A stretch of 64,000 nucleotides of DNA, taken from the NCBI GenBank assembly GCA_011525365.1, contig WTGQ01000002.1:2524773-2588772 (forward strand). The letters are read 5' to 3'. This document shows, one piece after another, positions 12,170 to 44,049 of the stretch. Position 1 is the first letter of the stretch. Each line of letters starts with the position of its first letter. The stretch comes from Acidobacteriota bacterium (lineage in GTDB: Bacteria > Acidobacteriota > Thermoanaerobaculia > Multivoradales > Multivoraceae). The position numbers were made by a program, and so were the translations under genes. Under the pieces are notes generated by a model. It was not told the origin of the DNA. It saw nothing but the letters and a program-made list of their open reading frames with translations, and did not search any database.

Positions 12170-13435
12170 ATGATGACCGCCGTGGCGAACGGTACCAGCG
12201 CCCCGAACAACGCCGGTGAAACACCTGCAGAGCCGGCGATACCCCAGCACCACGTCGAGACGACCGACCGGGACTTCCGCAGCCTCGGGCTGAATCCGGA
12301 GATCCTGGAGGTCCTGGCCGAAATCGGCTTCGAGCATCCGACGCCCATCCAGGCCGACGTGATCCCCGACGCGATCGCCGGCAGGGACCTGATCGGCCTG
12401 GCCGAAACCGGCTCCGGCAAGACAGCCGCCTTCGTCCTGCCGATCGTCCAGCGGCTCGGCCGGGGCAAGGGCGTGCGCGCGCTCGTCGTCTGCCCCACGC
12501 GCGAGATCGCCCTGCAGACCAAGGCCTTCCTCGACGTCTTTCGCAAGAGCCGGTTGCGAATCACCTCGGCCTGCCTGATCGGAGGCGTGAAGATCGGACC
12601 CCAGTTCGACCAGTTGCGCCGGGATCCCGACGTTTTGGTGGCAACGCCCGGGCGACTCCTGGACCACACCGAACGCGGCACGGTGAGCCTTCGCAACGTC
12701 GAGGAGCTCGTGCTGGACGAAGCAGACCACATGCTCGACCTCGGCTTCATGCCCCAGGTGCAGCGGATCGTGACCCAGGTGCCCAGCCGGCGGCACACGA
12801 TGCTGTTCTCGGCCACCATGCCGCCCCCGATCGAACGCCTGGCCCAGCGCTACATGGACGATCCCCTCCGGATCGACCTGGCGCCCCGCGGCGCCGCTTC
12901 CGGAATCGAACACCGCCTCTACCTGGTCGACGAGAAGGACAAGAAGAGCTGCGCCCTGGCGCTGCTCGACTCGGTCCCCGGATCGACCCTCGTCTTCACC
13001 AAGCGCCGGTCCGACGCCGAGTGGCTGTGCCGGGTGCTGGAGCGGGGACGGCACAGCGTCGCGCGCATCCACTCGGACCGCTCGCAGAAGCACCGGGTCG
13101 ACGCCCTCGAGAGTTTCCGCGCTGGTCATCATCGCATCCTGGTGGCAACGAACATCGCGGCCCGCGGCATCGACGTCCAGGGCATCGAGCACATCCTGAA
13201 CTACGACCTTCCCGATACCGCCGAGGACTACATCCACCGCGCCGGCCGCACCGCACGCGGCGCCGCCGAAGGGGTCGTGTCGTCGATCGGTACCTGGCTC
13301 GACAAGCCGATCGTCCGCCAGATAGAGCTGGCGCTCGGTCACCCGCTGCCTCGCCGGGAAGTCGAGGGAGTGTCCCCTTACCGTGAAATGCGGTCGCTCA
13401 ACGAGCGCCGCCGGCGCTCTCCGCTGCGCCGCTGA
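12170..13435 (+). CDS. DEAD-box ATP-dependent RNA helicase (RhlE/DeaD-like)
   Basis: Q-motif PTPIQ, motif I AETGSGKT, motif II DEAD, motif III SAT, motif VI HRAGRTAR. Arg-rich C-terminal tail. Confidence 0.9.
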   Translation: MMTAVANGTSAPNNAGETPAEPAIPQHHVETTDRDFRSLGLNPEILEVLAEIGFEHPTPIQADVIPDAIAGRDLIGLAETGSGKTAAFVLPIVQRLGRGKGVRALVVCPTREIALQTKAFLDVFRKSRLRITSACLIGGVKIGPQFDQLRRDPDVLVATPGRLLDHTERGTVSLRNVEELVLDEADHMLDLGFMPQVQRIVTQVPSRRHTMLFSATMPPPIERLAQRYMDDPLRIDLAPRGAASGIEHRLYLVDEKDKKSCALALLDSVPGSTLVFTKRRSDAEWLCRVLERGRHSVARIHSDRSQKHRVDALESFRAGHHRILVATNIAARGIDVQGIEHILNYDLPDTAEDYIHRAGRTARGAAEGVVSSIGTWLDKPIVRQIELALGHPLPRREVEGVSPYREMRSLNERRRRSPLRR

Positions 13436-13443
13436 ACGCCGCC

Positions 13444-15066
13444 GTGATCCCCATCCCGGATCTCCTGAACCGGGAGCCCTTTCTCGGCATCGACCGGAAG
13501 GCTCTGTCGGACCTGCTTGGCCTCGCCATTCTCGGCCGGGAGATCGGCACCGAGTTCCATGACCTGATGGCGGAGGCGGAGACGCCGCCCACGACGTGGC
13601 GGCCGGAGTTCTTCGAGCAGGACCTGTTCATCGACCGCCTGATCGCGGAGAGCTTCGAGGTCGCAATGGACGGCGTCCAGTACCCGATCAACCAGCGCTT
13701 TCTCCGACGCGCGCTATCCGCTACCCCGACCGATCTGCGGACGATCGAGTTCCGGCAGTCGATCCTGCGCGAGATGGACGAGAACGAAGAGATCCTGGCG
13801 TCAGCCAAACGACTCTACCGCGAGCTGTTCGCCCTGCTTTCGCTTCACCGTACGCCCCGTTATCACCGCATCGTCGACACCGCGGCCCACAACCTGGACA
13901 TCCTGAAGCAGAGCCGTCTCGTCATCGACCTGATGCACGACCGGTTCGGATCCGCCCGTTCCGGTCTCAGACGCCTCCACCAGGGGGCGGCCGCAATCCA
14001 CGAGACGGAGGAGTACAAGACCCTCGCCGCCCTGCTGGACTACGAGGACCAGCTCGCCCAACTGAACCTCGACATCTCCCTGGGCGGCGACGGCCGTATC
14101 CGCCGGGTCGAGGTGCGTTCCCTCGACGAGTGCAGCGACAACCGCTTCTGGACGCGACCGATCAAGCGCTTCTGGGGCCGGCTCCAACTCGGGATCGGCG
14201 GCTACTCGATGACGAACCGGGAACTCCTGAACCGGGTGATCGAGCGGGTCTACGTCTCCCTGTCTCCGGCCCTGATCCCGCTGATCCAGATGCTTGGCCA
14301 ACTGGAGCTCTACCTGGCGGTGCGGGCGTTGAGGGACCGCGCCGCCGGACGCGGCCTCGAGATGTGCATTCCTGAACTCCTGCCCGACCACGACACCGGC
14401 CCGGCGTTCGCCTGCGAGAACCTGTGGAACCCTCTGCTGCTGCACCAGGAACAGGCGCCCGTCCCCTGCACGGTGAGCACCGCCGGCAGCGTGCCGATCA
14501 CGGTCGTGACCGGGCCCAACTCGGGCGGCAAGACGCGGCTGATCCAGGCGATCGCGCTCGCCCAGCTACTCGCCCAGTCGGGCCTCTACGCGCCGTGCAC
14601 CCGCGGCCGCCTGCGGGTGCAGAACGGGCTCTTCGTCTCCCTGATCGAACGCGAGAGCGCGGACCAGGTAGAGGGCCGCCTGGGCCGGGAACTCGTGCGC
14701 ATCCGCACCCTGTTCGAGGAGATGGAGCACGGCTCGATGGTCATCCTGGACGAGCTCTGCTCGGGCACGAACCCGTCGGAGGGCATCGAGGTCTTCACCC
14801 TGGTCCTGCAGTTGCTCCGGCGGGTCGATCCGGTGGCCTACGTCACGACTCACTTCCTCGACCACGCCCGTTCCCTGGAGGAGAACCACCACGAACTGGG
14901 CCTGGAGTTTCTCCAGGTGGAGCTCGACGAAGCCCGCCGGAGCACCTACCAGTTCAACGCCGGCGTCGCCAGGACCTCCCTGGCCGCGCTCACCGCCGAA
15001 CGCCTCGGGGTTACCTTCGAGAACCTCTCGACGGCCGTCGACCGCCGCCGGACAAAGGCGAGCTAA
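13444..15066 (+). CDS. MutS domain V (ABC-type ATPase) protein lacking the mismatch-recognition domains
   Basis: C-terminal Walker A TGPNSGGKT and MutS-type Walker B/D-loop ILDELCSGTNPSEG. The N-terminal 330 aa or so are unassignable. Confidence 0.7.
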   Translation: MIPIPDLLNREPFLGIDRKALSDLLGLAILGREIGTEFHDLMAEAETPPTTWRPEFFEQDLFIDRLIAESFEVAMDGVQYPINQRFLRRALSATPTDLRTIEFRQSILREMDENEEILASAKRLYRELFALLSLHRTPRYHRIVDTAAHNLDILKQSRLVIDLMHDRFGSARSGLRRLHQGAAAIHETEEYKTLAALLDYEDQLAQLNLDISLGGDGRIRRVEVRSLDECSDNRFWTRPIKRFWGRLQLGIGGYSMTNRELLNRVIERVYVSLSPALIPLIQMLGQLELYLAVRALRDRAAGRGLEMCIPELLPDHDTGPAFACENLWNPLLLHQEQAPVPCTVSTAGSVPITVVTGPNSGGKTRLIQAIALAQLLAQSGLYAPCTRGRLRVQNGLFVSLIERESADQVEGRLGRELVRIRTLFEEMEHGSMVILDELCSGTNPSEGIEVFTLVLQLLRRVDPVAYVTTHFLDHARSLEENHHELGLEFLQVELDEARRSTYQFNAGVARTSLAALTAERLGVTFENLSTAVDRRRTKAS

Positions 15067-15067
15067 C

Positions 15068-15760
15068 TCAGTACGGAACGCCGGTCGCCCGGCAGACGAA
15101 CCGCATCAGTGGTGAGGCGGCGGCGCAGAGGCCCGTGAACTCGTCCAGAAAGCCGCCGCCGAGCAGCCGCGTCTGATTGAGACGCGCGACGGCCATGAAG
15201 GACTTGCGCTTGATGTCGTCGATACGTGGATGATCCGCATCGAAGCCTCGCGGAGCCCGTTTCAGACTCTCACCGCCCAGTTCAAGCTCCCCGCCGAGCC
15301 CCGGATTCCCGGTGACCTCGGCCCAACCGTCCGCGTCTTCCACGATCTGCCGCCGGATCGTCCGCAGCGCCTCCGGGTGGGGCCGCCACATCCCGCCGCC
15401 CATGAACACGCTGCCCGGTTCGATGTGGAGGTAGAAGCCGGGCGCATGGGCGTCGCGATGCTGCTCGTGGCGGAAGTGGATGCCGATGTGAGTCTTGTAG
15501 GGCCGCTTGTCGCGAGAGAAGCGCACGTCCCGGTGGATGCGGAACAGGGAACCGCCGACCTTCTTCGGCACCGCCAGAAAGTGGCTCGAGACCTCGTCGA
15601 TCCGGGTCCCGAAGTCGCTGATGAACTGAAGTGCCGGCTCGCGCACGACACTTTCATAGCGCTCGCCGTTGGCCGTGAACCAGTCGCGCTCGTTGTTCTC
15701 CGCGAGTTCGCGCAGAAAGGCGAAGGTCTGTCTCGAAAACGGGTTCTTCCATCGCTCCAT
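15068..15760 (-). CDS. DUF2461 / TIGR02453 family protein
   Basis: Characteristic N-terminus [21 protein letters not shown] and about 230 aa in length. Confidence 0.65.
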
Positions 15761-27921: not shown

Positions 27922-28647
27922 ATGGCCTTCAAGCTCGAGCGACGCGAGACCACCCGGTCGAAGTTCGCACCCGGTTCCCTCCATCTCGGTGGATCGCCAT
28001 ACGAGTTGGAGCCCGAGAACCGGACCCCACTGCGAATCGCGGTCATCGCGACGATCGCCTTCCACGCGCTGCTGTTCGTCATCAGCTTCCCCAGCATGAG
28101 GCCGCGGGCACTCCAGGCCGCACAGTCACCGAAGGCGTTCGTCGTCCAGGCCGTGCGCTTCAAGCCGCCGCCACCCGCCAAGGCGGAGCCCATTCCCCAG
28201 CGAAAGACGAAGAAGATCCCGATTCCCGACCCGACCCCCGACGAGCCCGAGCCGCTGATCCGGGAAGAGCTCCTCGAAGCGCCGCAACTGGAGATCGATG
28301 GCATCGCCGACGTCCTGTTCGACCTTCCAGAAGCCCCCTCCCCCGCCGGACCGCCCGGCACCATGTGGGTCGAAGGCGATGTCCTGCCCCCCAAGAAGAC
28401 CTACGCTCCGCTGCCCAACTACACCGAGGAGGCGCGTCAGGCGCGCATCCAGGGCGTCGTCATCCTGCAGGCCGTCGTCGATACCCTGGGCCAGGTCGGC
28501 TACGTCAAGGTGCTCAAGGGCCTGCCGGAGGGTCTCACCGAGTCCGCCGTCCAGGTCGTTCAGGAGTGGCGCTACGAACCCGCCACCCTGAACGGCGAAC
28601 CGGTCCCGGTCTACATCAACCTGACCGTCAACTTCTCGCTGCAGTAG
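27922..28647 (+). CDS. TonB family protein (C-terminal TonB domain)
   Basis: Pro-rich spacer KPPPPAKAEP followed by the TonB C-domain NYTEEARQARIQGVVILQAVVDTLGQVGYVKVLKG...ESAVQVVQEWRYEPA. Confidence 0.7.
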   Translation: MAFKLERRETTRSKFAPGSLHLGGSPYELEPENRTPLRIAVIATIAFHALLFVISFPSMRPRALQAAQSPKAFVVQAVRFKPPPPAKAEPIPQRKTKKIPIPDPTPDEPEPLIREELLEAPQLEIDGIADVLFDLPEAPSPAGPPGTMWVEGDVLPPKKTYAPLPNYTEEARQARIQGVVILQAVVDTLGQVGYVKVLKGLPEGLTESAVQVVQEWRYEPATLNGEPVPVYINLTVNFSLQ

Positions 28648-28667
28648 GCGACCCGGCGGATAGCCAC

Positions 28668-28846
28668 GCCTGCGCCGAGGCCGGGAGGGAGGGTCCCAGC
28701 GGACGCTCGCGCCCTCTTGGTGGATGAGGAGACCTGGCGCTCGCTTCGGTCGGCTGCGCTCCGCTACGTGGTTGGTTGATGGACGGACATGGGCAGTCGC
28801 TGGCCTCTAGCCCGCTGGGACCCTCCCTCCCGGCCTCGGCGCAGGC
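28668..28846. repeat. 35-bp perfect inverted repeat pair flanking a 109-bp spacer (MITE-like or large hairpin)
   Basis: 28668-28702 GCCTGCGCCGAGGCCGGGAGGGAGGGTCCCAGCGG is the exact reverse complement of 28812-28846. The repeat itself is certain. Its nature is not. Confidence 0.7.
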
Positions 28847-28860
28847 TGGACGATGTCGGC

Positions 28861-28945
28861 GTTGTGTCACACCTATGCACCTCAACACGGTTTGTGTAAC
28901 ACTTCGAGGCCACAAGTGCGACACAAGCCTGTTTGTCGTACACAG
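28861..28945 (+). promoter_or_regulatory. array of four GTGTnACAC-type near-palindromic motifs upstream of the fic gene (operator-like)
   Basis: GTGTCACAC at 28864, GTGTAACAC at 28894, GTGCGACAC at about 28915 and GTCGTACAC at about 28934. Spacings are 30, 21 and 19 bp. The array ends about 40 bp before the fic ATG. Confidence 0.4.
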
Positions 28946-28986
28946 ACGTTCCACAAAGAGCGCGACGCCAGGAGTCAAGAAGCACG

Positions 28987-30102
28987 ATGTCTCCCGTCCA
29001 CTACCAACCCGGCAGCTTCCCGCCAGACGAGCGCCTCGACTGGGCCGAACTCGTACCGCTGATTGGCCCCACCACGGCTGCAATCGCCCGCTACGACGGC
29101 TTACTCGAAGCCGTGCCCAACCCCGATGTCCTGCTTGCGCCGCTCGGAACCCAGGAAGCCGTGCTCTCGTCCCGGATCGAGGGCACTCAGGCTACCGCCC
29201 GCGAGGTCCTAGAGTACGAGGCTGGACAGGAAGCGCCCTCTTCGGAGCGGAGGAACGACTTCGTCGAGGTCCTGAACTACCGACTCGCGATGCGCGAAGC
29301 AGAGCAGTTGCTGAGGAAGCTACCAATCTGCCTCAAAGTCGTTCGGCAAACGCATCGGGTTCTCCTTCGTGGAGCACGCGGCAAAGGGCGCGACCCAGGC
29401 GAGTTCCGCCGGTTACCGAACTGGATCGGCCCCCCCGACTGCACAGTCGAAGAGGCGCGCTTCGTGCCGATCGAGGCCGACAAGCTCATGGCCGGCCTCG
29501 ATCGATGGGAGAAGTACCTCCACGAGGAGACTCGGGACCAGTTAGTTCAGCTCGCTGTCATACACGCCGAGTTCGAGGCTCTGCACCCGTTCCTCGACGG
29601 TAACGGCCGTCTGGGTCGCATGCTCGTGCCTCTCTACCTCGCCGAGAAGAGCCTGATTCGGCGGCCGATGTTCTACATCAGTGCCTTCCTTGAAGCGAAT
29701 CGCGACGCCTACTACGAAGGACTCCTCGCAGTCTCCCGCGATGACGACTGGACAGGCTGGTGCCGCTTCTTCCTAGAGGCCCTGCGCACGCAAGCGGAGG
29801 ACAACATCGCCAAGGCGAGAAGAATCCTGAGTCTGTACGACCGGATGAAGCACCATGTAACCGACCTCACTCACTCCCAGTACGCCATCAGTTCGCTGGA
29901 CTTCATCTTTGAGTCTCCGGCGTTCAGCAGCACACGTTTCATCGCACACGAGAAGGTGCCCGCTCCCGCCGCTCGCCGCATCCTGAACGCACTCCGCGAT
30001 GACGGCGTGTTGAGAACGGTGCTCCCAGCCAGCGGCCGCCGGCCCGCGATCTTCGTCTTCGACGAACTCCTCGAAGTCGCCGAGGGTCGCGCGACCGAGT
30101 AA
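28987..30102 (+). CDS. Fic family protein (class II Fic with an N-terminal inhibitory helix)
   Basis: Fic motif HPFLDGNGRLGRM. Upstream (S/T)xxxE(G/N) inhibitory motif SSRIEG. ATG at 28987. Confidence 0.85.
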   Translation: MSPVHYQPGSFPPDERLDWAELVPLIGPTTAAIARYDGLLEAVPNPDVLLAPLGTQEAVLSSRIEGTQATAREVLEYEAGQEAPSSERRNDFVEVLNYRLAMREAEQLLRKLPICLKVVRQTHRVLLRGARGKGRDPGEFRRLPNWIGPPDCTVEEARFVPIEADKLMAGLDRWEKYLHEETRDQLVQLAVIHAEFEALHPFLDGNGRLGRMLVPLYLAEKSLIRRPMFYISAFLEANRDAYYEGLLAVSRDDDWTGWCRFFLEALRTQAEDNIAKARRILSLYDRMKHHVTDLTHSQYAISSLDFIFESPAFSSTRFIAHEKVPAPAARRILNALRDDGVLRTVLPASGRRPAIFVFDELLEVAEGRATE

Positions 30103-30125
30103 CCTCGCCGACTCAACAAACGCTG

Positions 30126-32985
30126 ATGAGACTAGCTTGGCAGGAGATCCGCCCACGCGCCGCCGCGTTCGCCCGCGACTGGGCCGACGCCGGCTACGAG
30201 AAGGGCGAGACGCAGAGCTTCTACAACGCCTTCTTCCGCATCTTTGGCGTCGAGCGGCGCAGCGTCGCCCGCTACGAGGAGCAGGTCAAGCGGCTGGACG
30301 ACTCGCAGGGGTTCATCGACTTGTTCTGGCCGGGCGTGCTGCTGGTCGAGCAGAAGAGCGCCGGCCGCGATCTCGTGGCGGCGCGCCGTCAGGCGCTGTC
30401 TTACTTCGACGCCCTCCCGGAGCGCGAGCGGCCTCGCTATCTGCTGTTGTGCGACTTCCAGAACTTCGAACTGCTCGACCTGGACGAAGGCGAGGAAGCG
30501 CGGTTCACGCTGGCCGAGTTGCCCTCCAACGTGGAGAAGTTCGGCTTCATCCTCGGGGTCCAGAAGCGGACCTTCCGCGACGAGGACCCGGTCAACGCGG
30601 AGGCCGCGAAGCTGATGGCGGATCTCCACGACCGGCTGCTCGAGGTCGGCTACGGCGGTCGGGAGCTGGAGTTGTTCCTTGTCCGGATCGTGTTCTGCCT
30701 GTTCGCCGACGACACGGGCATCTTCGAGCGGCGCGACATCCTGCTCGAGCTGCTGGAGCAGCGAACCTCACCGGACGGCAGCGACTTGGGCGGCAGGTTG
30801 GCGCATCTCTTCCAGGTCCTGAACACGCCCGAAGCCAGCCGTCAGGCGACCCTGGACGAGGACCTGGCCCGCTTCCCGTACATCAACGGCGACCTGTTCG
30901 CGGAGACCCTGCCGATCGCCGACTTCGACTCCGCGATGCGCAGAGCGCTGCTCGATGCTTGCCGCTTCGACTGGACCGAGATCTCGCCGGCGATCTTCGG
31001 GACGCTGTTTCAGTCGGTCATGGAACCGGAGGAGCAGCGGATCAAGGGCAGCCACTACACGTCGGAGGCGAACGTCCTGAAGGTCATCGAGCCGCTGTTC
31101 CTGGACGACCTGCGGGCCGAGTTCTTGAGGCTCCGGCGGAGCCGAGGCACGCGGCGCAACGCCGAACTCCATGCCTTCCGGCAGCGACTCGGCCGGATGC
31201 GTTTCCTCGATCCGGCCTGCGGTTGCGGCAACTTCCTGGTCATCGCCTACCGGGAACTGCGCCAGCTCGAGATCGAGGTGCTCCGGGAACTCTTCCCGTC
31301 GCGCCAGCTCGGCCTCCTTGCTGACGCTCTGTCCCTCGTGAACGTGGATCAGTTCCACGGCATCGACCTCGACGAGTTCCCGAAACGGATCACGGAGATC
31401 GCGCTCTGGATGATGGACCACATCATGAACAACAGGCTCAGCCTGGAGTTCGGGGAGGCCTACGCGCGGATCCCGCTGGAGAGCTCACCGCAGATCCCTG
31501 CGCGGTGACGCTCTGGAGGTCGACTGGGACGACGTCCTTCCGCCGGAAGAGTGCTCCTTCGTGCTCGGCAATCCGCCCTTCGGCGGTGCCAAGCACCAGA
31601 CCGAGGAACAGCGGGCGCAGGTGCATCGCATCGCGGATCTCGGCAAGAGCGGCGGCACCTTGGACTACGTCACGGCCTGGTTCCTGAAGGCCGGCGAGTA
31701 CCTGCACCAAGGAATCGAGACCCAGCGCCGGTCCAGGGATCCAGCTGCAGCCGCCAATACGGTCCGGCCGCTCCGGATCGGTTTCGTCGCCACGAACTCG
31801 ATCACTCAGGGCGAGCAGGTCGGCCAATTGTGGCCGTTGATCTTCGACCGTCTGGGACTCGAGATCGCTTTCGGCCACCGGACGTTCGCCTGGAAGTCGG
31901 ACATCAAGAAGAAGGCGAACGTCCATGTCGTGATCGTCGGCCTCACGCTAGCGACCGACACCCCCAAGGATCGTCGGTTGTTCTCTTATCCCGACGTCAA
32001 GGGGAGTGCCGAGGAGAGCCGCCACGCTGCGATCTCGCCGTATCTCGTTGACGCCGGCGGACTCGCCGACCCGCATCTCGTCGTGCGGGAGACGGCAGAG
32101 CCGCTCAACGGCTGGCCGCGTCTCGCTAGCGGCAGCCAGCCCATCGACGACAGGAACTACATCTTCACCGACGACCAGCGGGCTACGTTCCTGGAACAAG
32201 AACCCGGGGCCGCGAAGCACTTGCGCCCCTACGTTGGCGGCGGTGACTACATACAGCGCCACTCCCGTTGGATCCTCGCCCTTCAGGACGCCGAGCCAGA
32301 GGAACTAGCAGCCTTGCCCTTCGTGGTGCAGCGGATCAAGGCTGTCAGGGAGTTCAGGTCAAGGAGCAAGAGGAAGGGCACGCTCGCGATCGCCAACTCT
32401 CCCCGAAGCTACAACGTCGAAGTCCTGCCCACGTCGCCCTTCCTCATCGTCCCCGAGGTCAGCTCCGAGCGCCGCGACTACGTGCCGATCGGCTGGCTTG
32501 AACCCCCGACCATCCCGAGCAACACAGCCCGCATCATCGAGAATGCGACCAAGCCGCTCTTCGCCCTGCTGACCTCCGCCATGCACATGGCCTGGCTGCG
32601 CGTGATCGGCGGCCGCCTGGAGAGCAGGTACCGATACTCGATCGGCTTGGTCTACAACCCCTTCCCGGCGCCGGCGGCGGACGCGGAAGTGCTCAACGAG
32701 AAGCTCGCGCCCTTGGCCAACGCCGTACTCGCAGCCCGCGCAGCGCACCCCGGCGCAACGCTGGCCGAACTCTACGACCCGGACCTCATGCCCGACGACC
32801 TCCGCCGCGCCCACCAGGCCATCGACCGTGCCGTCGACCGCCTCTACCGCCCGCGCCGCTTCTTATCGGAGAACGAGCGGCTGGAGCACCTGCTCTCCCT
32901 CTACGAGAAAACGATCGCCCCCATCTCCGCCGCGGCCCAGCCCAAGCGAAAGCGACGCCGCCGGAGGACGGTCGCGCGCAGATAG
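30126..32985 (+). pseudogene. MmeI-family type IIL restriction-modification enzyme (endonuclease-methyltransferase-TRD fusion), disrupted by a frameshift near 31495-31510
   Basis: N-terminal PD-ExK FIDLFWPGVLLVEQKS. Methyltransferase motif I LDPACGCGNFLV. Motif IV GNPPFGG, with the preceding RGDALEVDWDDVL in the +1 frame. The first frame stops at 31506-31508, and the second frame is open upstream through the junction. Confidence 0.65.
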
Positions 32986-33052
32986 CCGGGGTTGGCGTCC
33001 TGGAGCAGTCGCGTTCAGTCGCCGACGGGAGGCTAGAGCTAGAGTCCGGTTC

Positions 33053-34492
33053 ATGTCCCAGCGGCCCCCTGGCACCGAGCCGATTCTCCTCGAGAATGCA
33101 GTGCGGTTGCGCCCGGCCACGGCGGTCGACAGTGGCACCTGCGAACGTGACGTCATCGCGCGGGCGGAGATTCGGCTCCTGCCGAAGCCGGGCCTCGCAC
33201 TCATCGCGGACGACACTCCTTTCCGCCTCGATTCGGCCAAGGAGCCCTGGACCCTGGTTCAACCCAAGACCTCTGGAGAGCTGTTCGACGTCACGCCGCA
33301 ACCATCTCCTTCATCGCCGCCGGAGGACAAACTCAGGCAGTTCTTTGAGATCTTCGAAGCCACCGGCCACGAAACCGTAAGTCGTCAATCGACAGCCGAC
33401 GCAAGGGAACCGACACGGTGGAACCTAGTGTTTCTACCCCGACGTGCGCCCATCGTCGTTGAAAGGCGTCGAGAAGCTGCCAAGCGACTTGAACTCGAGA
33501 TTCTCAACTTCCCCGTCTTCGGGGGTGACGCGACGAAGGCGGTGCAACTCCCTGGCGGAATCTACCGGATCGGCCATCTGGCGGTCGAAGCGGCACCCTG
33601 GAAGATCGAGTTCACCGAGAGGCCCGGGCTAGGCAGCGTCAGGGCGGAGTTGAATGCAAGCCGCGGGTTCGCAACGACCCACGAGGCAAGAATCGACAGA
33701 GCGGACGGCGGTCCAATCGAGAAAGAGGAAGCTCAGCGTCTCTTGGAAGCGCTCGACCGGTTTCTCTCCTTCACGCGAGGAGTCGGATGCGCCACCGCGG
33801 TTGTAAGGGCGTTCTCGGGTGACGACGCCGTCGTCTGGGAACAGTGGGGCTGTCGGCAGGTGGCGCCTTGGCGCCCTGAACCAGACTCCTGGTTCGACTT
33901 GGAGCATGGGCGAGTCCTTGCCGAGGCCTTCTCCGCCTTCCTTCGTACTTGGGAAACGTGCCACGAGAAGCGGGCCGCCCTTCGCGAGGCGATCTACTGG
34001 TACCTCACAGGACACTGGGAGAACAGTCGAGTGGACGGCGGCCTCATCCTGCTACAGGCGGCGATGGAGCGCCTTGCACATACCTTCTACCGCCCGAAGC
34101 GCTGGAAGGGAAAGGAGAGGGAGACAAGCGGGCAGTGGCTTCGGATGGCCCTTGAGCGAGCTGGAATCCCGGTGGAAGCGCCAGCCAGCTTCAAAGCCCT
34201 CGGCACGTTCGCCGACGGCTTGAGCTGCCCGAAGGGAGAGAAAAGAGACGCCGTGTTTGCGATGACGCAGGCGCGAAACAACGCCGTTCACCCAAGGAAG
34301 GAAACGGAAGTCGCGGGCAGCCTCTACTTCCAAGCCTGGACCCTGGCTCGTTCCTTCGTGGAGCTCATGGTACTAAGTGCCATCGGCTACCAAGGCCCCT
34401 TCGCCAATCGCCTGCGGGAGGGAAGGGTGGAACTCGTGCCCTGGGCGCAGACCAAGAAGCTCCAGTCGGCAATCACACACGGCGCCGAGTAG
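33053..34492 (+). CDS. hypothetical protein, 479 aa, with a C-terminal helical domain carrying a HEPN-like RNxxxH motif
   Basis: ATG at 33053. Lies 67 nt after the MmeI-like gene. The motif is AMTQARNNAVHPRKE inside a predicted all-helical C-terminal 180 aa or so. I recognise no family. Local GC (about 59%) is lower than the flanks. Confidence 0.45.
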   Translation: MSQRPPGTEPILLENAVRLRPATAVDSGTCERDVIARAEIRLLPKPGLALIADDTPFRLDSAKEPWTLVQPKTSGELFDVTPQPSPSSPPEDKLRQFFEIFEATGHETVSRQSTADAREPTRWNLVFLPRRAPIVVERRREAAKRLELEILNFPVFGGDATKAVQLPGGIYRIGHLAVEAAPWKIEFTERPGLGSVRAELNASRGFATTHEARIDRADGGPIEKEEAQRLLEALDRFLSFTRGVGCATAVVRAFSGDDAVVWEQWGCRQVAPWRPEPDSWFDLEHGRVLAEAFSAFLRTWETCHEKRAALREAIYWYLTGHWENSRVDGGLILLQAAMERLAHTFYRPKRWKGKERETSGQWLRMALERAGIPVEAPASFKALGTFADGLSCPKGEKRDAVFAMTQARNNAVHPRKETEVAGSLYFQAWTLARSFVELMVLSAIGYQGPFANRLREGRVELVPWAQTKKLQSAITHGAE

Positions 34493-34518
34493 TGGGTCGG
34501 CGATCCCGAGCAGCGGAG

Positions 34519-35421
34519 ATGGCTCTGTGTGCGGAAGACGCGTTGCTCGCCGCCATCGAGATCTACAACAAGCCTCGAGTCGCCTACCGCGAGCAGACGC
34601 TGGCGCTCCTCCTGGTGAATGCCTGGGAGATCCTCCTGAAGGCGCGTGTCGTTCAGATGCACGGCAACAATCTGGCGGCGATCTACAGGCGGGAGCGAGG
34701 GTCCAAGCGATTCAGAAGAGCCAGATCGGGGAGAATCCTCACGGTCAGCCTTAGAGAGGCCGCCGAGAAGGCTCAGGTGGCCGATCAGGTGCGAAGCAAC
34801 CTGGAGGGACTCTGCGAGATCAGGGACGAGGCGGCGCATCTGGGCAACCTAGGGTCCGAGTTCAGGGAACAGACGCTGAAGCTTGGTTCAGCGGCGGTTC
34901 GGAACTTCGTTGTAGCTGTTGGCCGATGGTTTGGCCGGCAGGTTGAGGCACCTCACTTCCTGCCGCTTGGCTTCCTCAATCAAGCGGATCTGGTAAGGCC
35001 GGCCAACGTGCGGCAGAGAGAACTCCTGGACTATCTGAGGAAGCTGACTTCGGACCAGACACCATCGGACTCCGGGTTCACCGTGAGCTTGCGTGTCGAC
35101 GTTCTGCTGAACCCGGAGTTCTCCGGCGGTGGCACGATCGGTGTCACGAACAACCCAGCCGCGCCGAAGGTGCACCTGACGGACACGCAAGCTCTCGAGC
35201 GGTATCCGCTGACGTACGAGGATCTCGTAGAGGAGTGCCGCGCCCTGATTCCGAACCTCAAGCAGAACCAGTCGTTTCACGAGGCGATGAAGACAGTGAA
35301 GAGTGACGCTAACCAAGCGCTCGAGAGGCGGCTGAATCCGCAGAAGCCCGGAGGTACGAGGAAGTTCTTCTACGCCAGGACGGCGCCGGGCCGTCTCCGG
35401 CACCTCCTGCGAGGTGACTGA
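34519..35421 (+). CDS. hypothetical protein, about 300 aa, with an N-terminal four-helix HEPN-like domain (Rx4H: EIRDEAAHLGN)
   Basis: The ORF 34492..35421 overlaps the stop of the upstream gene. The probable start is the ATG at 34519. It has a conserved-looking helix AIEIYNKP...LALLLVNAWEILLKA and an Rx4H motif. I can place it in no named family. Confidence 0.45.
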   Translation: MALCAEDALLAAIEIYNKPRVAYREQTLALLLVNAWEILLKARVVQMHGNNLAAIYRRERGSKRFRRARSGRILTVSLREAAEKAQVADQVRSNLEGLCEIRDEAAHLGNLGSEFREQTLKLGSAAVRNFVVAVGRWFGRQVEAPHFLPLGFLNQADLVRPANVRQRELLDYLRKLTSDQTPSDSGFTVSLRVDVLLNPEFSGGGTIGVTNNPAAPKVHLTDTQALERYPLTYEDLVEECRALIPNLKQNQSFHEAMKTVKSDANQALERRLNPQKPGGTRKFFYARTAPGRLRHLLRGD

Positions 35422-35494
35422 AGTGGCTGGCGCAGCGTTCGGCGTGGTCCGTTGGTCCGCGTAGGGGAGCCAGCCGACGCCGATGCCCGCCGGC

Positions 35495-36577
35495 CTAATC
35501 TCCGCCCGAACCCGTGCTCGCGCCCTGCCCCTTCTTCTCGTAGTACTCCTTCTCCAGCAGCCGGGCGCCGCGGAGGATGTTGCCCATCGCGTAGTTGCCT
35601 TCGTGGCAGGCGTACTCGTAGAGAAGGCCGTCGGTTCCCGGCCAGATGAGTTCGCCGCTATAGGGGGCAGCGTAGTCCGTGTCATGGACGGTGAACCCGT
35701 AGAGCAGGTCCCTCTCGCCGTGGCGGCTGAAGCGCTCGATGACCTTCAGGCCGTCGCGCGGGTCGCTCTGGCTGTCGAGGAAGTTGGTCGTCTCCACGAC
35801 CAGCGTGTCGCCTTCCCACCAGCCGATCGAGTCGCCGCCCATCGAACGGTACTCGGCTGGCGCGTGCTCGGCGTTCAGGCGGACCACCTTCGCCCAATGC
35901 ATCCACTCGACCAGGATCACGACGTGGTCCTCGGTCTGCGTGATCGTCTTCAGGTTGTTGTAGGGCAGTGAACGGACCGGCGTCGTGGCGACGCCGGTGT
36001 AGATGCAGCGGTCTCCGGGAGTCAACGTCTCGGGGCCATCGTAGGGATCGTCCCCGGCCTCGATCCACCAGGCGTCCCCGGTGTTCTTGTAGAGGTACGG
36101 GTTCACCCTGGCCCGCCGCGCCTTGCCGGCCTCGGTCAGTTCCGGCATACGGCCGTTCGGCGGGTCGATGAGGACCGATGTACGGTACTGGCCATCGATC
36201 GGATACGCCTGGTTGCCAAAGTCCAGCCAGAAGAAGTTGTAGCCGCCGACCGCGCCGGACGCGCCCGCGGAACCGTCGCCGCCAGCCGGGGGCGCCTCAC
36301 GGTCCGGGTCGCTGACCGCGTCCGCGCCCGCGCTGGCCGCCGCCATCCCGGCAGCGATCCGCTCCGCTTCCTCCGCGGTCATGAACTGTTTGTCGCCGAA
36401 GCGGGGATCCCGTTCGAACGGTGTCAGGTTGGCGACGTCGTAGTTGCCGGACAGGTCCGGCCGGCCGCTCGCCGTGCGCCGGATGTCGTCATCGCTGGCC
36501 GCCACGGCGGGCGTGGCGAGAAGCGACAGAAAGACGAGAACAACGAACAGGGTGGAGACGTTGCGACGAATCGGCAT
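35495..36577 (-). CDS. secreted hypothetical protein
   Basis: Signal peptide MPIRRNVSTLFVVLVFLSLLATPAVAAS. About 335-aa mature region with no recognisable family. Confidence 0.5.
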   Translation of the reverse strand: MPIRRNVSTLFVVLVFLSLLATPAVAASDDDIRRTASGRPDLSGNYDVANLTPFERDPRFGDKQFMTAEEAERIAAGMAAASAGADAVSDPDREAPPAGGDGSAGASGAVGGYNFFWLDFGNQAYPIDGQYRTSVLIDPPNGRMPELTEAGKARRARVNPYLYKNTGDAWWIEAGDDPYDGPETLTPGDRCIYTGVATTPVRSLPYNNLKTITQTEDHVVILVEWMHWAKVVRLNAEHAPAEYRSMGGDSIGWWEGDTLVVETTNFLDSQSDPRDGLKVIERFSRHGERDLLYGFTVHDTDYAAPYSGELIWPGTDGLLYEYACHEGNYAMGNILRGARLLEKEYYEKKGQGASTGSGGD

Positions 36578-36644: not shown

Positions 36645-37892
36645 TCAGCGCGGCGGCAGCCAGCCGCGCGGAGGGCGGAAGTACGCCTTGAAGTTCGCTT
36701 CCCGCCGACGCTCCGGGGACAGGTTCTCGAACACCCCGTAGACGAAGGTGCCGTGCTGGTGACTGTGAATCACCGGGTTGCCACGCCAGGCAGCCTCGCC
36801 GATCTCGCACGGCTGCTCCGGGAGACAGCTGCCCCGACTCTCAAGGTCCGCAACCTCGTACTGGAAGCCGATGAACCGCGCCCCGTGAGGCAGAAAGATT
36901 CCCAGGACCTGGCAGGACCGTTCAGGATCGAGGATGGGGCCCAGCAGTTCCTGGACTTCGGTGCGAACCTCATCCGGCAGCAACCGCAGCACGTCGTTAC
37001 CGGTTGGCTCGACGAGCGACCCGGCGTACACCCGAAAACGGACTGGCAACGAGTCCTCGACGATCTTCGCCACCCGCTCCATCCGCTCAACGAGATCAGG
37101 GGCGCAAGCGACGGTTTCGGCCGTTCTCGGCTCGGCGGGCCAGTTGCTCGCCACCGACCACTCGCCGGGGCCGCATTCCGGACAGGCGCCGGCCCGCAGC
37201 AGAGTGCGGTTCGGGAGCAGGCGGACCACCTCCGGTTCGGCCGCCGCCTCGGGTTCGCGCGCCGGTTCGGGCGCCGCGGCAGCAGGCCGCTTCTCCACCG
37301 GCGGGTCCACAACCGGCTGCTCCGCCACCGCCACAGGCTGCGCGGCGGGCGCCTCCGGAGGTTCCGGCGGCGGCTCCACTACCCGCGCCACGTTCTCACT
37401 GCGCAGCCGACGCGCCCGTTGCTCTGCCCGTCGTTCGGCGCGTCGCTGAGCCCGAGTCATCGCTCGCGCCGAGCCCGCGCTGACCGCCGCCGTGTCGACG
37501 CCCAGGCTTGAGTAGCCGACGTTCATCGGCGCCCAGAAGGGACCCGTGCGCTGGCGTGAGGTGAACCCGACCTGCGGCCGCTTCCCGTCTTCCAGCTTCA
37601 GGTAGGAGCTCACGATCATGAACCCCTCGCGCCGCAGTTCGACCTGCCACTCGCCTGCCGACAGACCGCTGACTTCCGCCATTCCGGATGCGTCGGTCAG
37701 CAGCGGCGGCGGTCCGCCAGAGCGATCGGGCTCGGCCAGGAAGACCATGACCGTAACCCCCGGCAACGGCTGCCCGGCGTCATCCGTGACCACCACCTGA
37801 AAGCCGTTGCTCCCGCTCCATTCCTGGGCCGGCGCCGGGGCGGCGGCCGTGAGGACGACCGCCAGCGCCAGGAGGGGCCGGCCGATCGTCAT
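36645..37892 (-). CDS. secreted protein with an N-terminal carboxypeptidase-regulatory-like domain and a Pro/Ala/Glu-rich linker
   Basis: Signal peptide MTIGRPLLALAVVLTAAAPAPAQ. GFQVVVTDDAGQPLPGVTVMVFL beta-sandwich motif. The C-terminal Cys-containing domain is unassigned. Confidence 0.5.
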   Translation of the reverse strand: MTIGRPLLALAVVLTAAAPAPAQEWSGSNGFQVVVTDDAGQPLPGVTVMVFLAEPDRSGGPPPLLTDASGMAEVSGLSAGEWQVELRREGFMIVSSYLKLEDGKRPQVGFTSRQRTGPFWAPMNVGYSSLGVDTAAVSAGSARAMTRAQRRAERRAEQRARRLRSENVARVVEPPPEPPEAPAAQPVAVAEQPVVDPPVEKRPAAAAPEPAREPEAAAEPEVVRLLPNRTLLRAGACPECGPGEWSVASNWPAEPRTAETVACAPDLVERMERVAKIVEDSLPVRFRVYAGSLVEPTGNDVLRLLPDEVRTEVQELLGPILDPERSCQVLGIFLPHGARFIGFQYEVADLESRGSCLPEQPCEIGEAAWRGNPVIHSHQHGTFVYGVFENLSPERRREANFKAYFRPPRGWLPPR

Positions 37893-42042: not shown

Positions 42043-44049
42043 TCAGGGGGAGCCGGTAGCCGCTGCGCCGGATGCCGCCGTCAGCGGGAACTCCTCCACG
42101 CCGTACTCGGCCAGGATCGAGGCCGCCAGATCGGTAATGGCGGGGGCCGGCCTGGCAAGGGGCCGGCTGGTGAACAGCACCCCCGGCACGACCCGGTGAT
42201 CCATCATGTGATCGCCGCTCCAGGCGCCGTCGTTGTCCGAGAACACCTCGCCGACGACCTTCCCCGTCGCTGATTCGGTCGATCCCCGGTAGCCTTTGGC
42301 ATAGCCGATGATCAGGTCGGGGCCGACGGCCGCCGGCTCCTGGAAGGCATAGTCGGCGCGACGCTTGACCTCCGTGATCGCGCGTTCGCCCGTCGCGGGA
42401 TCGACCACGGCCAGCAGTTCCGTTCTCAGTTCCTCGATCAGCTCGAGCCTCTCCGCCGCGGTCACGACGCCCTCCCGCTCGCGGCCGCGCAGATTGACAT
42501 AAAGACCCGTGAAGCCGATGCCGTAGGCCCGGGTTCCCTCCCAGTCGACGTTGAGCAGGAAGTCCGGGTCGTTGTAGGCATCCGGGTCCTTCGCCCGCAG
42601 GTAGCCCTTCTCGAGCAGCCAGGCGTTCAGGTGGAAGGTACGCCGCCAGGAGGCGAAGCCATGGTCCGACATGGCGACGACAAGCGGCTCGTCCTCACCA
42701 CCGTCGCCCAGTCCCGCCGCCGCTTCGAGACGGTCGAGCGTCTGCCCGACGATCGCGTCGAGGCCTTCGTAAAGGGTCGGGATCAGGTCGGCATGGGCCG
42801 CGTCGGTTTCGGGATCGTAGGCCGGATGCTCCGGATCGCGCGAGCGCCAGCGCACATGGCCGATCAGGTCCACGTTGCCGAAGTAGTAGAAGAGGAAACC
42901 GCCGGGCTCCTCCAGGAATCGATCCAGCACGTAGCCGTACTGCTCCACCACTTCGTCGCCGGCGATCTTCGCCTGGGCCAGGAACTCCTCCGGAGTGAAC
43001 ACGCCTTCGGTCAGGGTCTTCGTGTCCTCGGGCATCCCTTCGGTGTAGAACCGGTCCACCTCCTGGGCGAGTTCGGCCGCGAAGTCGGGCGGCGTCGAGA
43101 TCGGGGCCGATGGGGCCATCGGATCGTGGTCGATGGGGCTCACGTAGAGCTCGAACTCCGGCTCCAGCGCCCGTAGGTACATACGGCAGATTCCCCGCAG
43201 GTGCTGGGTCGGCATCATCTCGAAGTCGACCTCGAGCCAGTCGCTCCACTCCCCGACCTGGAGCACGATCTGCTGATCGCCGAGTTCGATCTTGGCGCTC
43301 GCGGCCTCCGGATCGATGTAGACGGTGAAGGGCGCGGTCAACTGCTCCGGTTCCTGCAGCAGCGGATTCTCGGGGCCGAGCAGCTCCGCCTCGACGACGT
43401 TGTCGTAGATGTCCAGCTCGACGATGTCGCCGCCGCTGACCTCGCGGTCGGCGAAGAGTTCCGAGGTGTAGAACGAGAACGTGCCGTCCGTGCCGAGGAT
43501 GTCGCTCGTCCCCATCCCCGAAAGCTCGCGACTGGCCGTGCCCGAAACCGGGAAGTTCGCCGGCATGCGGATCACCTGCGTCCGCACACCGTGCTCCTCC
43601 AGCACCTCCCAGAACGGCGTGCCGTGCCGAAAGTGCGTGTACTCGCCGCTGGTGAGCGGGAACTGCCAGCGTCCCACCTTCAGGAACCGGCCTCCCGCGG
43701 ACGAACCGGCGGTAGAGGAGTACGGAATCAGCGTCTCCGGATCGGAGTGGAGGAAGTCGAAGATGCCGTGGCCGCCCGGGTCCATTCCGGTGATGAAGCT
43801 CGACCAGGCGACCGGGCTCTGCGGCGGGACCGTCGTCCGGAGTTGGGCGAAGGTGCCCATCGCCTCCAGCCGGGCGAAGTTCGGCAACCGACCCTCGTCG
43901 ATCAACTGGCGCGTCAGCGCGTGGTCCAGGCCGTCGAAGCCGAGAACGACGACCTTCGGCCCCCTGGAAGGGCCGACGCCTCCACCGCCGCAAGCGAGGA
44001 GCAGGGCGGCCGAGAGAACCGCCGCCGTCGCCAGACGTGAACGCTTCAC
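42043..44049 (-). CDS. type I phosphodiesterase / nucleotide pyrophosphatase family lipoprotein (alkaline-phosphatase superfamily)
   Basis: Lipobox LLLACGGG. AlkP-core motifs VVLGFDGLD, SPVAWSSFITG and AMSDHGF. Confidence 0.8.
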   Translation of the reverse strand: MKRSRLATAAVLSAALLLACGGGGVGPSRGPKVVVLGFDGLDHALTRQLIDEGRLPNFARLEAMGTFAQLRTTVPPQSPVAWSSFITGMDPGGHGIFDFLHSDPETLIPYSSTAGSSAGGRFLKVGRWQFPLTSGEYTHFRHGTPFWEVLEEHGVRTQVIRMPANFPVSGTASRELSGMGTSDILGTDGTFSFYTSELFADREVSGGDIVELDIYDNVVEAELLGPENPLLQEPEQLTAPFTVYIDPEAASAKIELGDQQIVLQVGEWSDWLEVDFEMMPTQHLRGICRMYLRALEPEFELYVSPIDHDPMAPSAPISTPPDFAAELAQEVDRFYTEGMPEDTKTLTEGVFTPEEFLAQAKIAGDEVVEQYGYVLDRFLEEPGGFLFYYFGNVDLIGHVRWRSRDPEHPAYDPETDAAHADLIPTLYEGLDAIVGQTLDRLEAAAGLGDGGEDEPLVVAMSDHGFASWRRTFHLNAWLLEKGYLRAKDPDAYNDPDFLLNVDWEGTRAYGIGFTGLYVNLRGREREGVVTAAERLELIEELRTELLAVVDPATGERAITEVKRRADYAFQEPAAVGPDLIIGYAKGYRGSTESATGKVVGEVFSDNDGAWSGDHMMDHRVVPGVLFTSRPLARPAPAITDLAASILAEYGVEEFPLTAASGAAATGSP

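Follow-up and report, generated by a model that had tools for sequence, protein, structure and literature searches.

A probable long-resident chromosomal defence locus with independently kept, exchanged or lost modules in the Candidatus Multivorans lineage of Acidobacteriota

Results

Features of the locus and loci used for comparison

Within a 64,000-nucleotide stretch of contig WTGQ01000002.1 from an Acidobacteriota bacterium (the whole stretch that was analysed, hereafter the window), six features lie between the stop codon of a TonB-family gene (28647) and a convergent gene for a secreted protein (35495), namely a hairpin repeat, a cluster of operator-like sites, a Fic gene, a split MmeI-family gene, a gene for a 479-amino-acid (aa) protein, and a gene for a 300-aa protein. 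A first reading of the nucleotide sequence, here called the original prediction, had marked off this segment of about 6.8 kb as an accessory defence islet between the two genes, and both boundaries were confirmed. Three modules of the block were matched by PADLOC (SoFic, REase_MTase_IIG, and PDC-S19), in agreement with the kind of gene content that had been proposed. The window was found to match a metagenome-assembled genome (MAG) scaffold, ENA ERZ23491745 (GLAS20-1_SAMN13567174 scaffold_1). The closest relatives in a collection of species-representative genomes were MAGs labelled Holophagales, Thermoanaerobaculia, or Candidatus Multivorans (Acidobacteriota), and the related MAGs include several from sponge metagenomes, as judged by record name.

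Eighteen related loci from MAGs or metagenomes (Ca. Multivorans and relatives, all of the genomes being uncultured MAGs) were compared and are designated below by L numbers. The orthologous locus was taken from 13 species-representative MAGs (L004-L015 and L035). L084, L088, and L098 came from protein look-ups and a metagenome scan, as did L099 and L087, in which the block is found at a second chromosomal site.

The Fic gene

The Fic gene (28987-30102, plus strand) encodes a 371-aa protein predicted to be a class II, SoFic-type AMPylase, which is composed of Fic_N (Pfam, 1.6e-23), the Fic core (4.6e-16), and a C-terminal region that aligns to the winged-helix domain of SoFic. The core motif HxFx(D/E)GN(G/K)RxxR reads HPFLDGNGRLGR in the window protein and in 16 of 17 orthologues (the remaining one has RMGR), and the inhibitory motif SSRIEG (S61-S-R-I-E65-G66), located inside Fic_N, is kept in 17 of 17 sequences. 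Since an inhibitory (S/T)xxxE(G/N) motif in the N-terminal part defines class II, the class II assignment of the original prediction was upheld. The PADLOC SoFic model matched residues 5-365 (9.8e-108), and the SoFic structures 3EQX and 3ZCN aligned to residues 12-351 (4e-32; phmmer, 115 bits); 3EQX was deposited as a "Fic domain containing transcriptional regulator". AMPylation and phage protection are known only for the SoFic proteins of E. coli and Shewanella; abortive infection by SoFic has been reported (PMC12249575), and the reported target of SoFic is EF-Tu (bioRxiv 10.64898/2026.07.09.737422).

The MmeI-family gene and its frameshift

The MmeI-family gene is divided into two fragments on the plus strand, over which the five MmeI Pfam domains (MmeI_N, MmeI_hel, MmeI_Mtase, MmeI_TRD, and MmeI_C) follow one another in canonical order. 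The N-terminal fragment (30126-31508, 460 aa) covers the nuclease domain and the helicase-like spacer and extends into the methyltransferase, with matches to MmeI_N (5.9e-43), MmeI_hel (5.7e-25), and positions 7-112 of MmeI_Mtase (4.1e-32). The C-terminal fragment (31561-32985) encodes the remainder of the methyltransferase, followed by the target recognition and C-terminal domains, with matches to positions 140-258 of MmeI_Mtase (3.1e-32), MmeI_TRD (2.4e-60), and MmeI_C (4e-24); its listed open reading frame (ORF) starts at GTG 31561, and homology resumes just past the frameshift. PADLOC REase_MTase_IIG matched both fragments (4e-163 and 2.1e-144, respectively). The catalytic motifs of MmeI are defined as the nuclease D-X9-EXK and the methyltransferase NPPF, and the translations of the fragments contain IDLFWPGVLLVEQK in the N-terminal part and GNPPFGG at the start of the C-terminal part.

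The frameshift was located at 31496-31498, where CCC stands in place of the CC of intact orthologues and the 1-nt insertion leads to a stop codon, TGA, at 31506-31508. This position was obtained by DNA alignment to the MmeI genes of L006, L009, L010, L098, and L088, and three-frame translation agreed with it. The gene had been described as frameshifted and decayed; the frameshift is real, and heavy decay was not found, a single extra C being the lesion. Records of the identical truncated 460-aa product exist for 17 contigs, for which reason an assembly artefact is considered unlikely, with the proviso that these contigs could share raw data. Phase variation is likewise considered unlikely, since the run is merely CCC. 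MmeI is one open frame in L006, L009, L010, L012, and L015 (965-1005 codons, with 1005 in L006, 976 in L009, and 965 in L010) and was called as a single gene of 951-952 aa in L084 and L098 (952 aa in L098). In L088, the two halves match at the same spacing with no extra C at the junction. Divergence is faster in the target recognition half than in the N-terminal one (88% versus 98% identity to L006). Because the methyltransferase of the window gene is interrupted, neither cleavage nor methylation by an intact polypeptide is expected.

The YopA-family and DUF3644 genes

The last two genes had been regarded as unclassifiable, and both were assigned to families, the first as a YopA_M/YopA_C protein and the second as a DUF3644 protein. 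In the 479-aa YopA-family protein (33053-34492, plus strand), the N-terminal third is poorly conserved, the middle domain is of alpha/beta type, and the C-terminal domain is of predicted HEPN type. PF26308 (YopA_M) and PF27216 (YopA_C) are precomputed annotations of the exact protein and of 12 of 12 close homologues, and the family comprises 3383 clusters at 50% identity. The protein had no match in Pfam (of which the local copy presumably predates PF26308 and PF27216), PADLOC, PHROGs, NCBIfam, or PDB sequences. The C-terminal domain carries a conserved RNNAVH motif (R408-H413), and fold and motif analysis placed this Rx4-6H motif in a HEPN fold; from this analysis of our own, YopA_C is predicted to be a HEPN domain.

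The 300-aa DUF3644/HEPN protein (34519-35421, plus strand) has the Rx4H motif RDEAAH (R102-H107) in a four-helix up-down bundle, as is characteristic of HEPN domains. It matches a PADLOC candidate, PDC-S19, and residues 5-296 were matched by profile PDLC04954 over positions 4-315 of 330 (6.3e-71); literature searches on PDC-S19 returned nothing usable. The C-terminal 80 residues form a small helix/strand (alpha/beta) unit lacking cysteine clusters. The gene starts at ATG 34519 in the annotation of the source, with an alternative GTG start at 34492, and the former leaves a gap of 27 nt (34492 to 34519) after the YopA gene, a spacing that recurs in L098 and L099; the overlap between the two genes described in the original prediction is therefore probably absent. 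DUF3644, a HEPN domain, is found in restriction-modification (R-M) operons (PMC3710099), and experimental defence has been reported for two DUF3644-HEPN proteins, HEC-08, in which the histidine of Rx4-6H is essential, and Ishtar.

Homologues of the DUF3644 protein (46-50% identity) were found inside a type I R-M operon with the order HsdM-HsdS-DUF3644-x-PIN-HsdR (L103) and directly after genes for a DUF1156 methylase and an SNF2/PLD helicase (L100 and L104). The L103 region (an OZ251997-type genome, 1960949-1975905) is a further defence cluster of Multivorans, in which a FitA-like ribbon-helix-helix (RHH)/PIN pair is followed by HsdM-HsdS-DUF3644-unknown-PIN-HsdR, and in which a YgjP-like gene and a DUF1883-TIR protein are also encoded. 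A YopA homologue stands alone in L085, beside an insertion sequence (IS) element, an MmeI-like methylase, a PIN/RHH pair, and an SNF2 helicase. An obligate YopA-DUF3644 operon was rejected, since each gene occurs elsewhere without the other. A metagenome scan with the YopA alignment gave 10 loci, mostly on short contigs, and the neighbours of its two longest distant hits were uninformative.

The operator-like array upstream of Fic

An array of operator-like sites occupies 28862-28944 (plus strand) upstream of the Fic gene, with TTGTGTCACAC at 28862, TTGTGTAACAC at 28892, TTGTGTCGCAC on the minus strand at 28916-28926, and a related fourth site, TTTGTCGTACACA, at 28932-28944. The palindrome array noted in the original prediction is thus real: exact TTGTGTNRCAC sites at 28862, 28892, and 28916 (minus strand) are the only three in the 64 kb, where 0.08 were expected, and none of 100 shuffled sequences reached three. 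The second and third sites form an inverted repeat with 13-nt arms. Among 102 loci (1.7 Mb), the exact motif occurred only in loci with this Fic gene, and the positions that were cross-checked lie upstream of Fic (the window/L002 and L088) or upstream of MmeI (L010 and L013-L015). The variant of the inverted repeat follows the allele class of Fic, being TTGTGTAACAC...GTGCGACACAA in one class and TTGTGGAACAC...GTGTTCxACAA in the other, which indicates that promoter and gene were exchanged together. A second array is present in the Fic-MmeI spacer of L010 (15286-15355), L013 (13120-13195), L014 (13094-13146), and L015 (15290-15359), and L004 has a copy just 3' of Fic (approximately 11400-11530); in the window this spacer is 23 nt long and holds no array. 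A sigma-70 promoter scan of the islet found no promoter, and terminators were found in it only at chance level.

The hairpin repeat

The hairpin repeat (28668-28846, 179 bp, no strand assigned) has perfect terminal inverted repeats of 35 nt, as the original prediction had described, at 28668-28702 and 28812-28846, with 100% complementary arms and 109 nt between them. The arm has no further occurrence in the window (chance expectation, 0), and the folded element has a predicted energy of -139.8 kcal/mol (z = -8.7). An Rfam scan of the whole window and of the repeat/operator region gave no match. Copies with 75-90% identity are located in the TonB-Fic spacer of L005, L011, L035, and L009, and short remnants of the left arm in L004 and L006. 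Further copies of about 185 nt are dispersed over at least five unrelated contexts: L069 (2925-3110), L047 (two, 13372-13560 and 15219-15355), L048 (15685-15868), L049, and the site shared by L016, L018, L022, L024, and L029 (approximately 14.2-14.6 kb). The arms of the family are long and fully paired, and the interior is kept between copies, including GCTCGCTTCGGTCGGC. In an alignment of 11 copies, 18 stem pairs showed compensatory double changes and the long stem had no single-sided changes, a pattern that indicates maintenance of the hairpin itself; the inner helices had many single-sided changes (e.g. G-C to G-U).

The Logan contig L003 ends inside the element, and the homology of the window with the second-site block of L099 starts inside its right arm. 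That the 35-bp inverted repeat marks an att-like boundary of an island was rejected because the element belongs to a dispersed family. For the same reason it does not stand as the islet component that it had been taken for, and it is regarded as a lineage-specific structured repeat resembling miniature inverted-repeat transposable elements (MITEs) and repetitive extragenic palindromes (REPs).

Base composition and search for mobility genes

The G+C content of the whole window is 68.2%, and 1-kb intervals outside the islet have a mean of 68.7% (standard deviation 1.6; minimum 65.6%). The 1-kb values of the Fic region (62.2-63.3%) and of the YopA/DUF3644 region (61.9-63.3%) are lower than every interval outside, and those of the MmeI region are 64.1-67.6%. 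The low G+C content claimed for the two-gene cassette thus holds relative to the flanks, and the figure of 59-60% does not, the gene values being 63.0% and 61.8%. The G+C content at third codon positions (GC3) is 0.77 for Fic, 0.73 for YopA, 0.76 for DUF3644, 0.86-0.91 for MmeI (0.86 for the C-terminal fragment), and 0.86-0.88 for the flanking genes. The deviation in composition that was anticipated for the block is accordingly present in three of its four genes (Fic, YopA, and DUF3644), and the codon composition of MmeI is host-like.

No integrase or transposase gene was found within about 10 kb on either side in the gene tables, the sole tRNA gene of the window (tRNA-Trp, 43919-44005) is 8.4 kb from the islet, and no flanking direct repeats were found around it, as the original prediction had also observed. 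A classical genomic island was rejected on these three grounds.

Gene content of related loci

The flanking synteny is conserved on the TonB side (DEAD helicase, HhH glycosylase, epimerase, TonB) and on the other side (secreted-protein gene, carboxypeptidase-regulatory-like gene, DUF6116, TauE). Fic adjoins TonB in 18 of 18 related loci with this synteny, on the side towards the secreted-protein gene; it is shortened in L006, and in L084 it sits immediately upstream of the carboxypeptidase-regulatory-like gene. The proposal that the whole block is accessory was therefore borne out for the variable part of its content and not for Fic.

MmeI is missing in L004, L005, L007, L011, and L035, and fragments of it remain in L013 and L014. 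In L008, the gene is interrupted next to an ORF for an IS1595-like DDE transposase (13229-13699), which represents an independent inactivation of the same gene. In L005, L011, and L035, the first approximately 55 nt of MmeI (ATGAGACT...GCCGCGTTCG) run directly into the stop region of the secreted-protein gene; this 5' stub in relatives that have only Fic is a deletion scar, and the absence of the gene there is a loss.

YopA and DUF3644 occur together at this site only in the window, L088, L098, L084, and L006. L088 has full-length matches to both at the level of tblastn alignment, YopA is truncated in L098, and both genes are decayed in L006. The DUF3644 gene of L084 is probably decayed as well, as only genes of 81 and 44 aa were called where tblastn aligned residues 1-298 at 62% identity. 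In L084 (7611-7973 and 9440-10634), a DUF2513 gene precedes YopA and a C-terminal fragment of Fic (residues 310-371) follows DUF3644, the latter suggesting that part of the locus was once duplicated or rearranged. The order Fic-MmeI-YopA-DUF3644 is found at the same site in L088, L098, L006, and L084, and the TonB proteins of L088 and L098 are 78-79% identical to that of the window.

At the second site in L099, a genome that differs at genus level, the block lies between a glutathione S-transferase (GST) gene and an SSF transporter gene, in the order Fic, a 31-aa N-terminal stub of MmeI, a 209-aa gene, YopA, and DUF3644; L087 has the same site without DUF3644. The block at this site in L099 indicates that it was moved or copied as a unit at least once. 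The gene of about 209 aa (MDRPTFVLAAMAAAG...RLQKYFFLLDRE...), which has no Pfam family and is oriented opposite to Fic and MmeI, adjoins the secreted-protein gene in six relatives (L008, L009, L010, L013, L014, and L015), accompanies the block in L084, L087, and L099, and is absent from the window. Its coordinates are 11190-11873 in L008 and L010, 11013-11825 in L015, and 11639-12250 in L084, and those of the second-site copies are 7004-7600 in L087 and 5674-6270 in L099.

The identity of Fic does not track that of TonB. TonB is 98% identical between L004 and L005, yet Fic is 70% identical, and the Fic of L004 is 88-90% identical to the Fic of genomes with 77-79% TonB identity. The window Fic is 80-83% identical to the L004-type allele group and 69-71% to that of the nearest flank relatives. 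This discordance indicates allelic replacement.

Boundary genes

The left boundary gene (27922-28647, plus strand) encodes a protein with a TonB C-terminal domain (Pfam TonB_C, 1.9e-19); it is syntenic, 71-98% identical among relatives, and adjoins Fic in all related loci. The right boundary gene (35495-36577, minus strand) encodes a convergent 360-aa protein with a signal-peptide-like N-terminal segment, which belongs to a lineage-specific paralogue family and gave no family match in Pfam and NCBIfam searches. Its orthologues at the same position are 85-94% identical. The family is strongly expanded, with relatives encoded on 560 matched stretches of the genome collection and several per Multivorans genome; relatives were also present in Pseudomonadales/Gammaproteobacteria MAGs, several of which derive from the same metagenome bin series as acidobacterial MAGs. 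The product of the next gene, the carboxypeptidase-regulatory-like gene (36645-37892, minus strand), differs by one residue (99.76% identity) from its copy on the ENA ERZ23491745 scaffold, the other compared genes being 100% identical, and the window may represent a slightly different assembly of the same organism.

Discussion

Residence and history of the locus

The four stacked modules at 28.65-35.49 kb likely make up a chromosomal defence locus that has long resided in the Ca. Multivorans lineage, each having been kept, exchanged, or lost independently of the others. This reading is built on gene identities, motifs, synteny, presence and absence in relatives, deletion scars, and composition, and the biochemical activities, like any part that the genes play against phages in this organism, are all inferred from these. 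The locus would predate the divergence of these species and would have been inherited vertically, its present state being one of partial erosion; later change would have consisted of allelic replacement in the case of Fic and of deletion, IS insertion, and frameshifts in the case of MmeI, YopA, and DUF3644.

The emphasis of the original prediction was on the delivery of the entire 6.8-kb block to this genome as a recent horizontal acquisition through recombination. The expected difference in content among relatives at the site was observed, and the lower G+C and GC3 of Fic, YopA, and DUF3644, the lack of MmeI, YopA, and DUF3644 in the closest flank relatives (L004, L005, L007, L011, and L035), and the shuffling of Fic alleles relative to the TonB tree are all consistent with such an event. 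However, the same order at the same site in L088, L098, and L006, the retention of the first approximately 55 nt of MmeI in relatives that have only Fic and hence lost the block, the agreement of the MmeI GC3 with that of the flanks, and the lack of an integrase, a tRNA, and direct repeats argue against it, and recent acquisition of the whole block is considered unlikely. Homologous recombination with a related species may have re-imported a part of the block, which would explain why the N-terminal part of MmeI is 98% identical to that of L006 and the secreted-protein gene 89%.

Proposed roles of the modules

By analogy with SoFic, the Fic protein may halt infection by AMPylating host targets such as EF-Tu, and its N-terminal inhibitory helix would hold the enzyme in check until its release leads to abortive infection. 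The gene could be autoregulated through binding of the C-terminal winged-helix-like region to the operator-like sites. An MmeI-type enzyme would normally restrict unmodified DNA and methylate its own; here it would be disabled, as the 1-nt insertion leaves the nuclease and the first methyltransferase motifs on one side and NPPF and the target recognition domain on the other. The YopA-family and DUF3644 proteins, with their predicted HEPN domains and intact Rx4H motifs, are most likely latent abortive-infection RNases. PrrC/EcoprrI is the paradigm of an R-M-associated HEPN anticodon nuclease, and the usual placement of HEPN genes near methylation systems suggests, by the same analogy, a backup or guard role.

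A closer functional link among the modules would have the Fic protein reversibly AMPylate the YopA-type and DUF3644-type HEPN RNases, as a Fic analogue of MNT-HEPN, within one layered system, MmeI included, whose genes would be carried along together and in which the YopA family would represent a new class of R-M-associated abortive-infection RNase; this is judged very unlikely. In its complete form, in which all four genes make up one system, the two RNases are silenced by AMPylation as by MNT, and phage inhibition of MmeI as the first line frees them, the proposal appears remote. Fic persists alone in at least five genomes, YopA or DUF3644 occurs without Fic in L085, L086, L100, L103, and L104, and the two genes decay independently of Fic in L006, L084, and L098. 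In addition, the other genes are retained without a functional MmeI in the window and in L099, and SoFic is a single-gene system in PADLOC that is described as acting on host targets. A locus without defence function, in which Fic is a housekeeping regulator and the downstream genes are passengers of no benefit to the host, either selfish or neutral (an R-M addiction module together with toxin-like genes), would agree with the presence of Fic with conserved catalytic and inhibitory motifs in every relative, the tight regulation suggested by the conserved operator-like array, and the repeated loss of MmeI, but is highly improbable in view of the allelic replacement of Fic (69-83% identity where flanks are 93-98% identical), which is atypical of housekeeping genes, the strong full-length match to the defence-derived SoFic model, and the R-M or DISARM-like neighbours of DUF3644 homologues.

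Several observations weigh against a long-resident defence locus as interpreted here. The retention of Fic in every relative with conserved catalytic and inhibitory motifs also fits housekeeping regulation, and its score against the NCBIfam SoFic equivalog NF046030 (163 bits) is below the cut-off of 550, so that the protein is better called a SoFic-like subfamily member than an equivalog. PADLOC 2.0, PHROGs, and NCBIfam do not include the YopA family, literature searches gave no functional study of it, and some YopA homologues have non-defence settings, namely after rpoC (L086) and near UbiA, PP2C, and kinase genes (L096). With MmeI broken, a guard role of the HEPN genes would lack an intact partner in this genome, and the functional claims as a whole are drawn from the sequences of uncultured MAGs.

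The islet is built from known kinds of genes and does not overturn current understanding; its least-known element is the YopA family, and one of the two predicted HEPN proteins, DUF3644, is already a listed defence candidate (PDC-S19). On the reading of a long-resident defence locus, it offers a natural example of such a locus aging in place through allele swaps, deletion scars, IS hits, and single-base frameshifts, without an integrase. YopA, a large and unstudied Pfam family, is flagged here as a predicted HEPN protein near R-M, Fic, and DUF3644/PDC-S19 genes and would be a reasonable candidate for defence screening. The operator motif specific to these Fic and MmeI genes and the structured dispersed repeat are testable candidates as well.

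Comparison with known systems

The hairpin repeat resembles MITE and REP elements in its length of about 180-190 nt, its non-coding nature, its long terminal inverted repeats, and its many copies at unrelated sites of related genomes, and differs in that the window copy shows no recognisable target-site duplication and that a cognate transposase was not found. The split gene shares with type IIL (IIG) enzymes of the MmeI family the canonical order of five domains, single-chain orthologues, and a faster-diverging target recognition half, whereas the 1-nt insertion inside the methyltransferase domain means that it does not encode a single uninterrupted polypeptide.

The Fic protein agrees with SoFic, the class II AMPylase of Shewanella oneidensis, in having Fic_N, the Fic core, and a C-terminal winged-helix region, in the motifs HPFLDGNGRLGR and SxxxEG, and in its full-length PADLOC match; SoFic is treated as a single-gene defence system in PADLOC and DefenseFinder. 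In contrast, the sequence match to the SoFic structures is distant, the NCBIfam equivalog cut-off is not reached, a lineage-specific palindromic operator-like array precedes the gene, and no small downstream antitoxin-like gene such as AS1 (PMC12249575) is present, as MmeI starts 23 nt past the Fic stop.

The YopA-family protein shares both of its domains with the family named after YopA of Bacillus subtilis SPbeta, whose members are typically 400-470 aa long, and in this lineage the N-terminus is extended by about 125 aa that are poorly conserved and of low confidence. The DUF3644 protein resembles DUF3644/EC042_2821-type proteins (PDC-S19, HEC-08, and Ishtar) in its N-terminal DUF3644 HEPN domain with Rx4H, its full-length PDC-S19 match, and its position next to methylation-based systems; it differs from HEC-08, to which it was not assigned, in having a cysteine-poor alpha/beta unit where HEC-08 has C-terminal zinc-ribbon repeats. 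Relative to PrrC-EcoprrI, the genes studied here lie downstream of a single-chain type IIL enzyme and not inside a type I operon, no ABC-ATPase fusion is present, and the likeness to PrrC/RloC is drawn by analogy. What the two arrangements have in common is the presence of HEPN RNase genes beside or inside an R-M system, where they could plausibly serve as an abortive-infection backup to restriction (PMC3710099).

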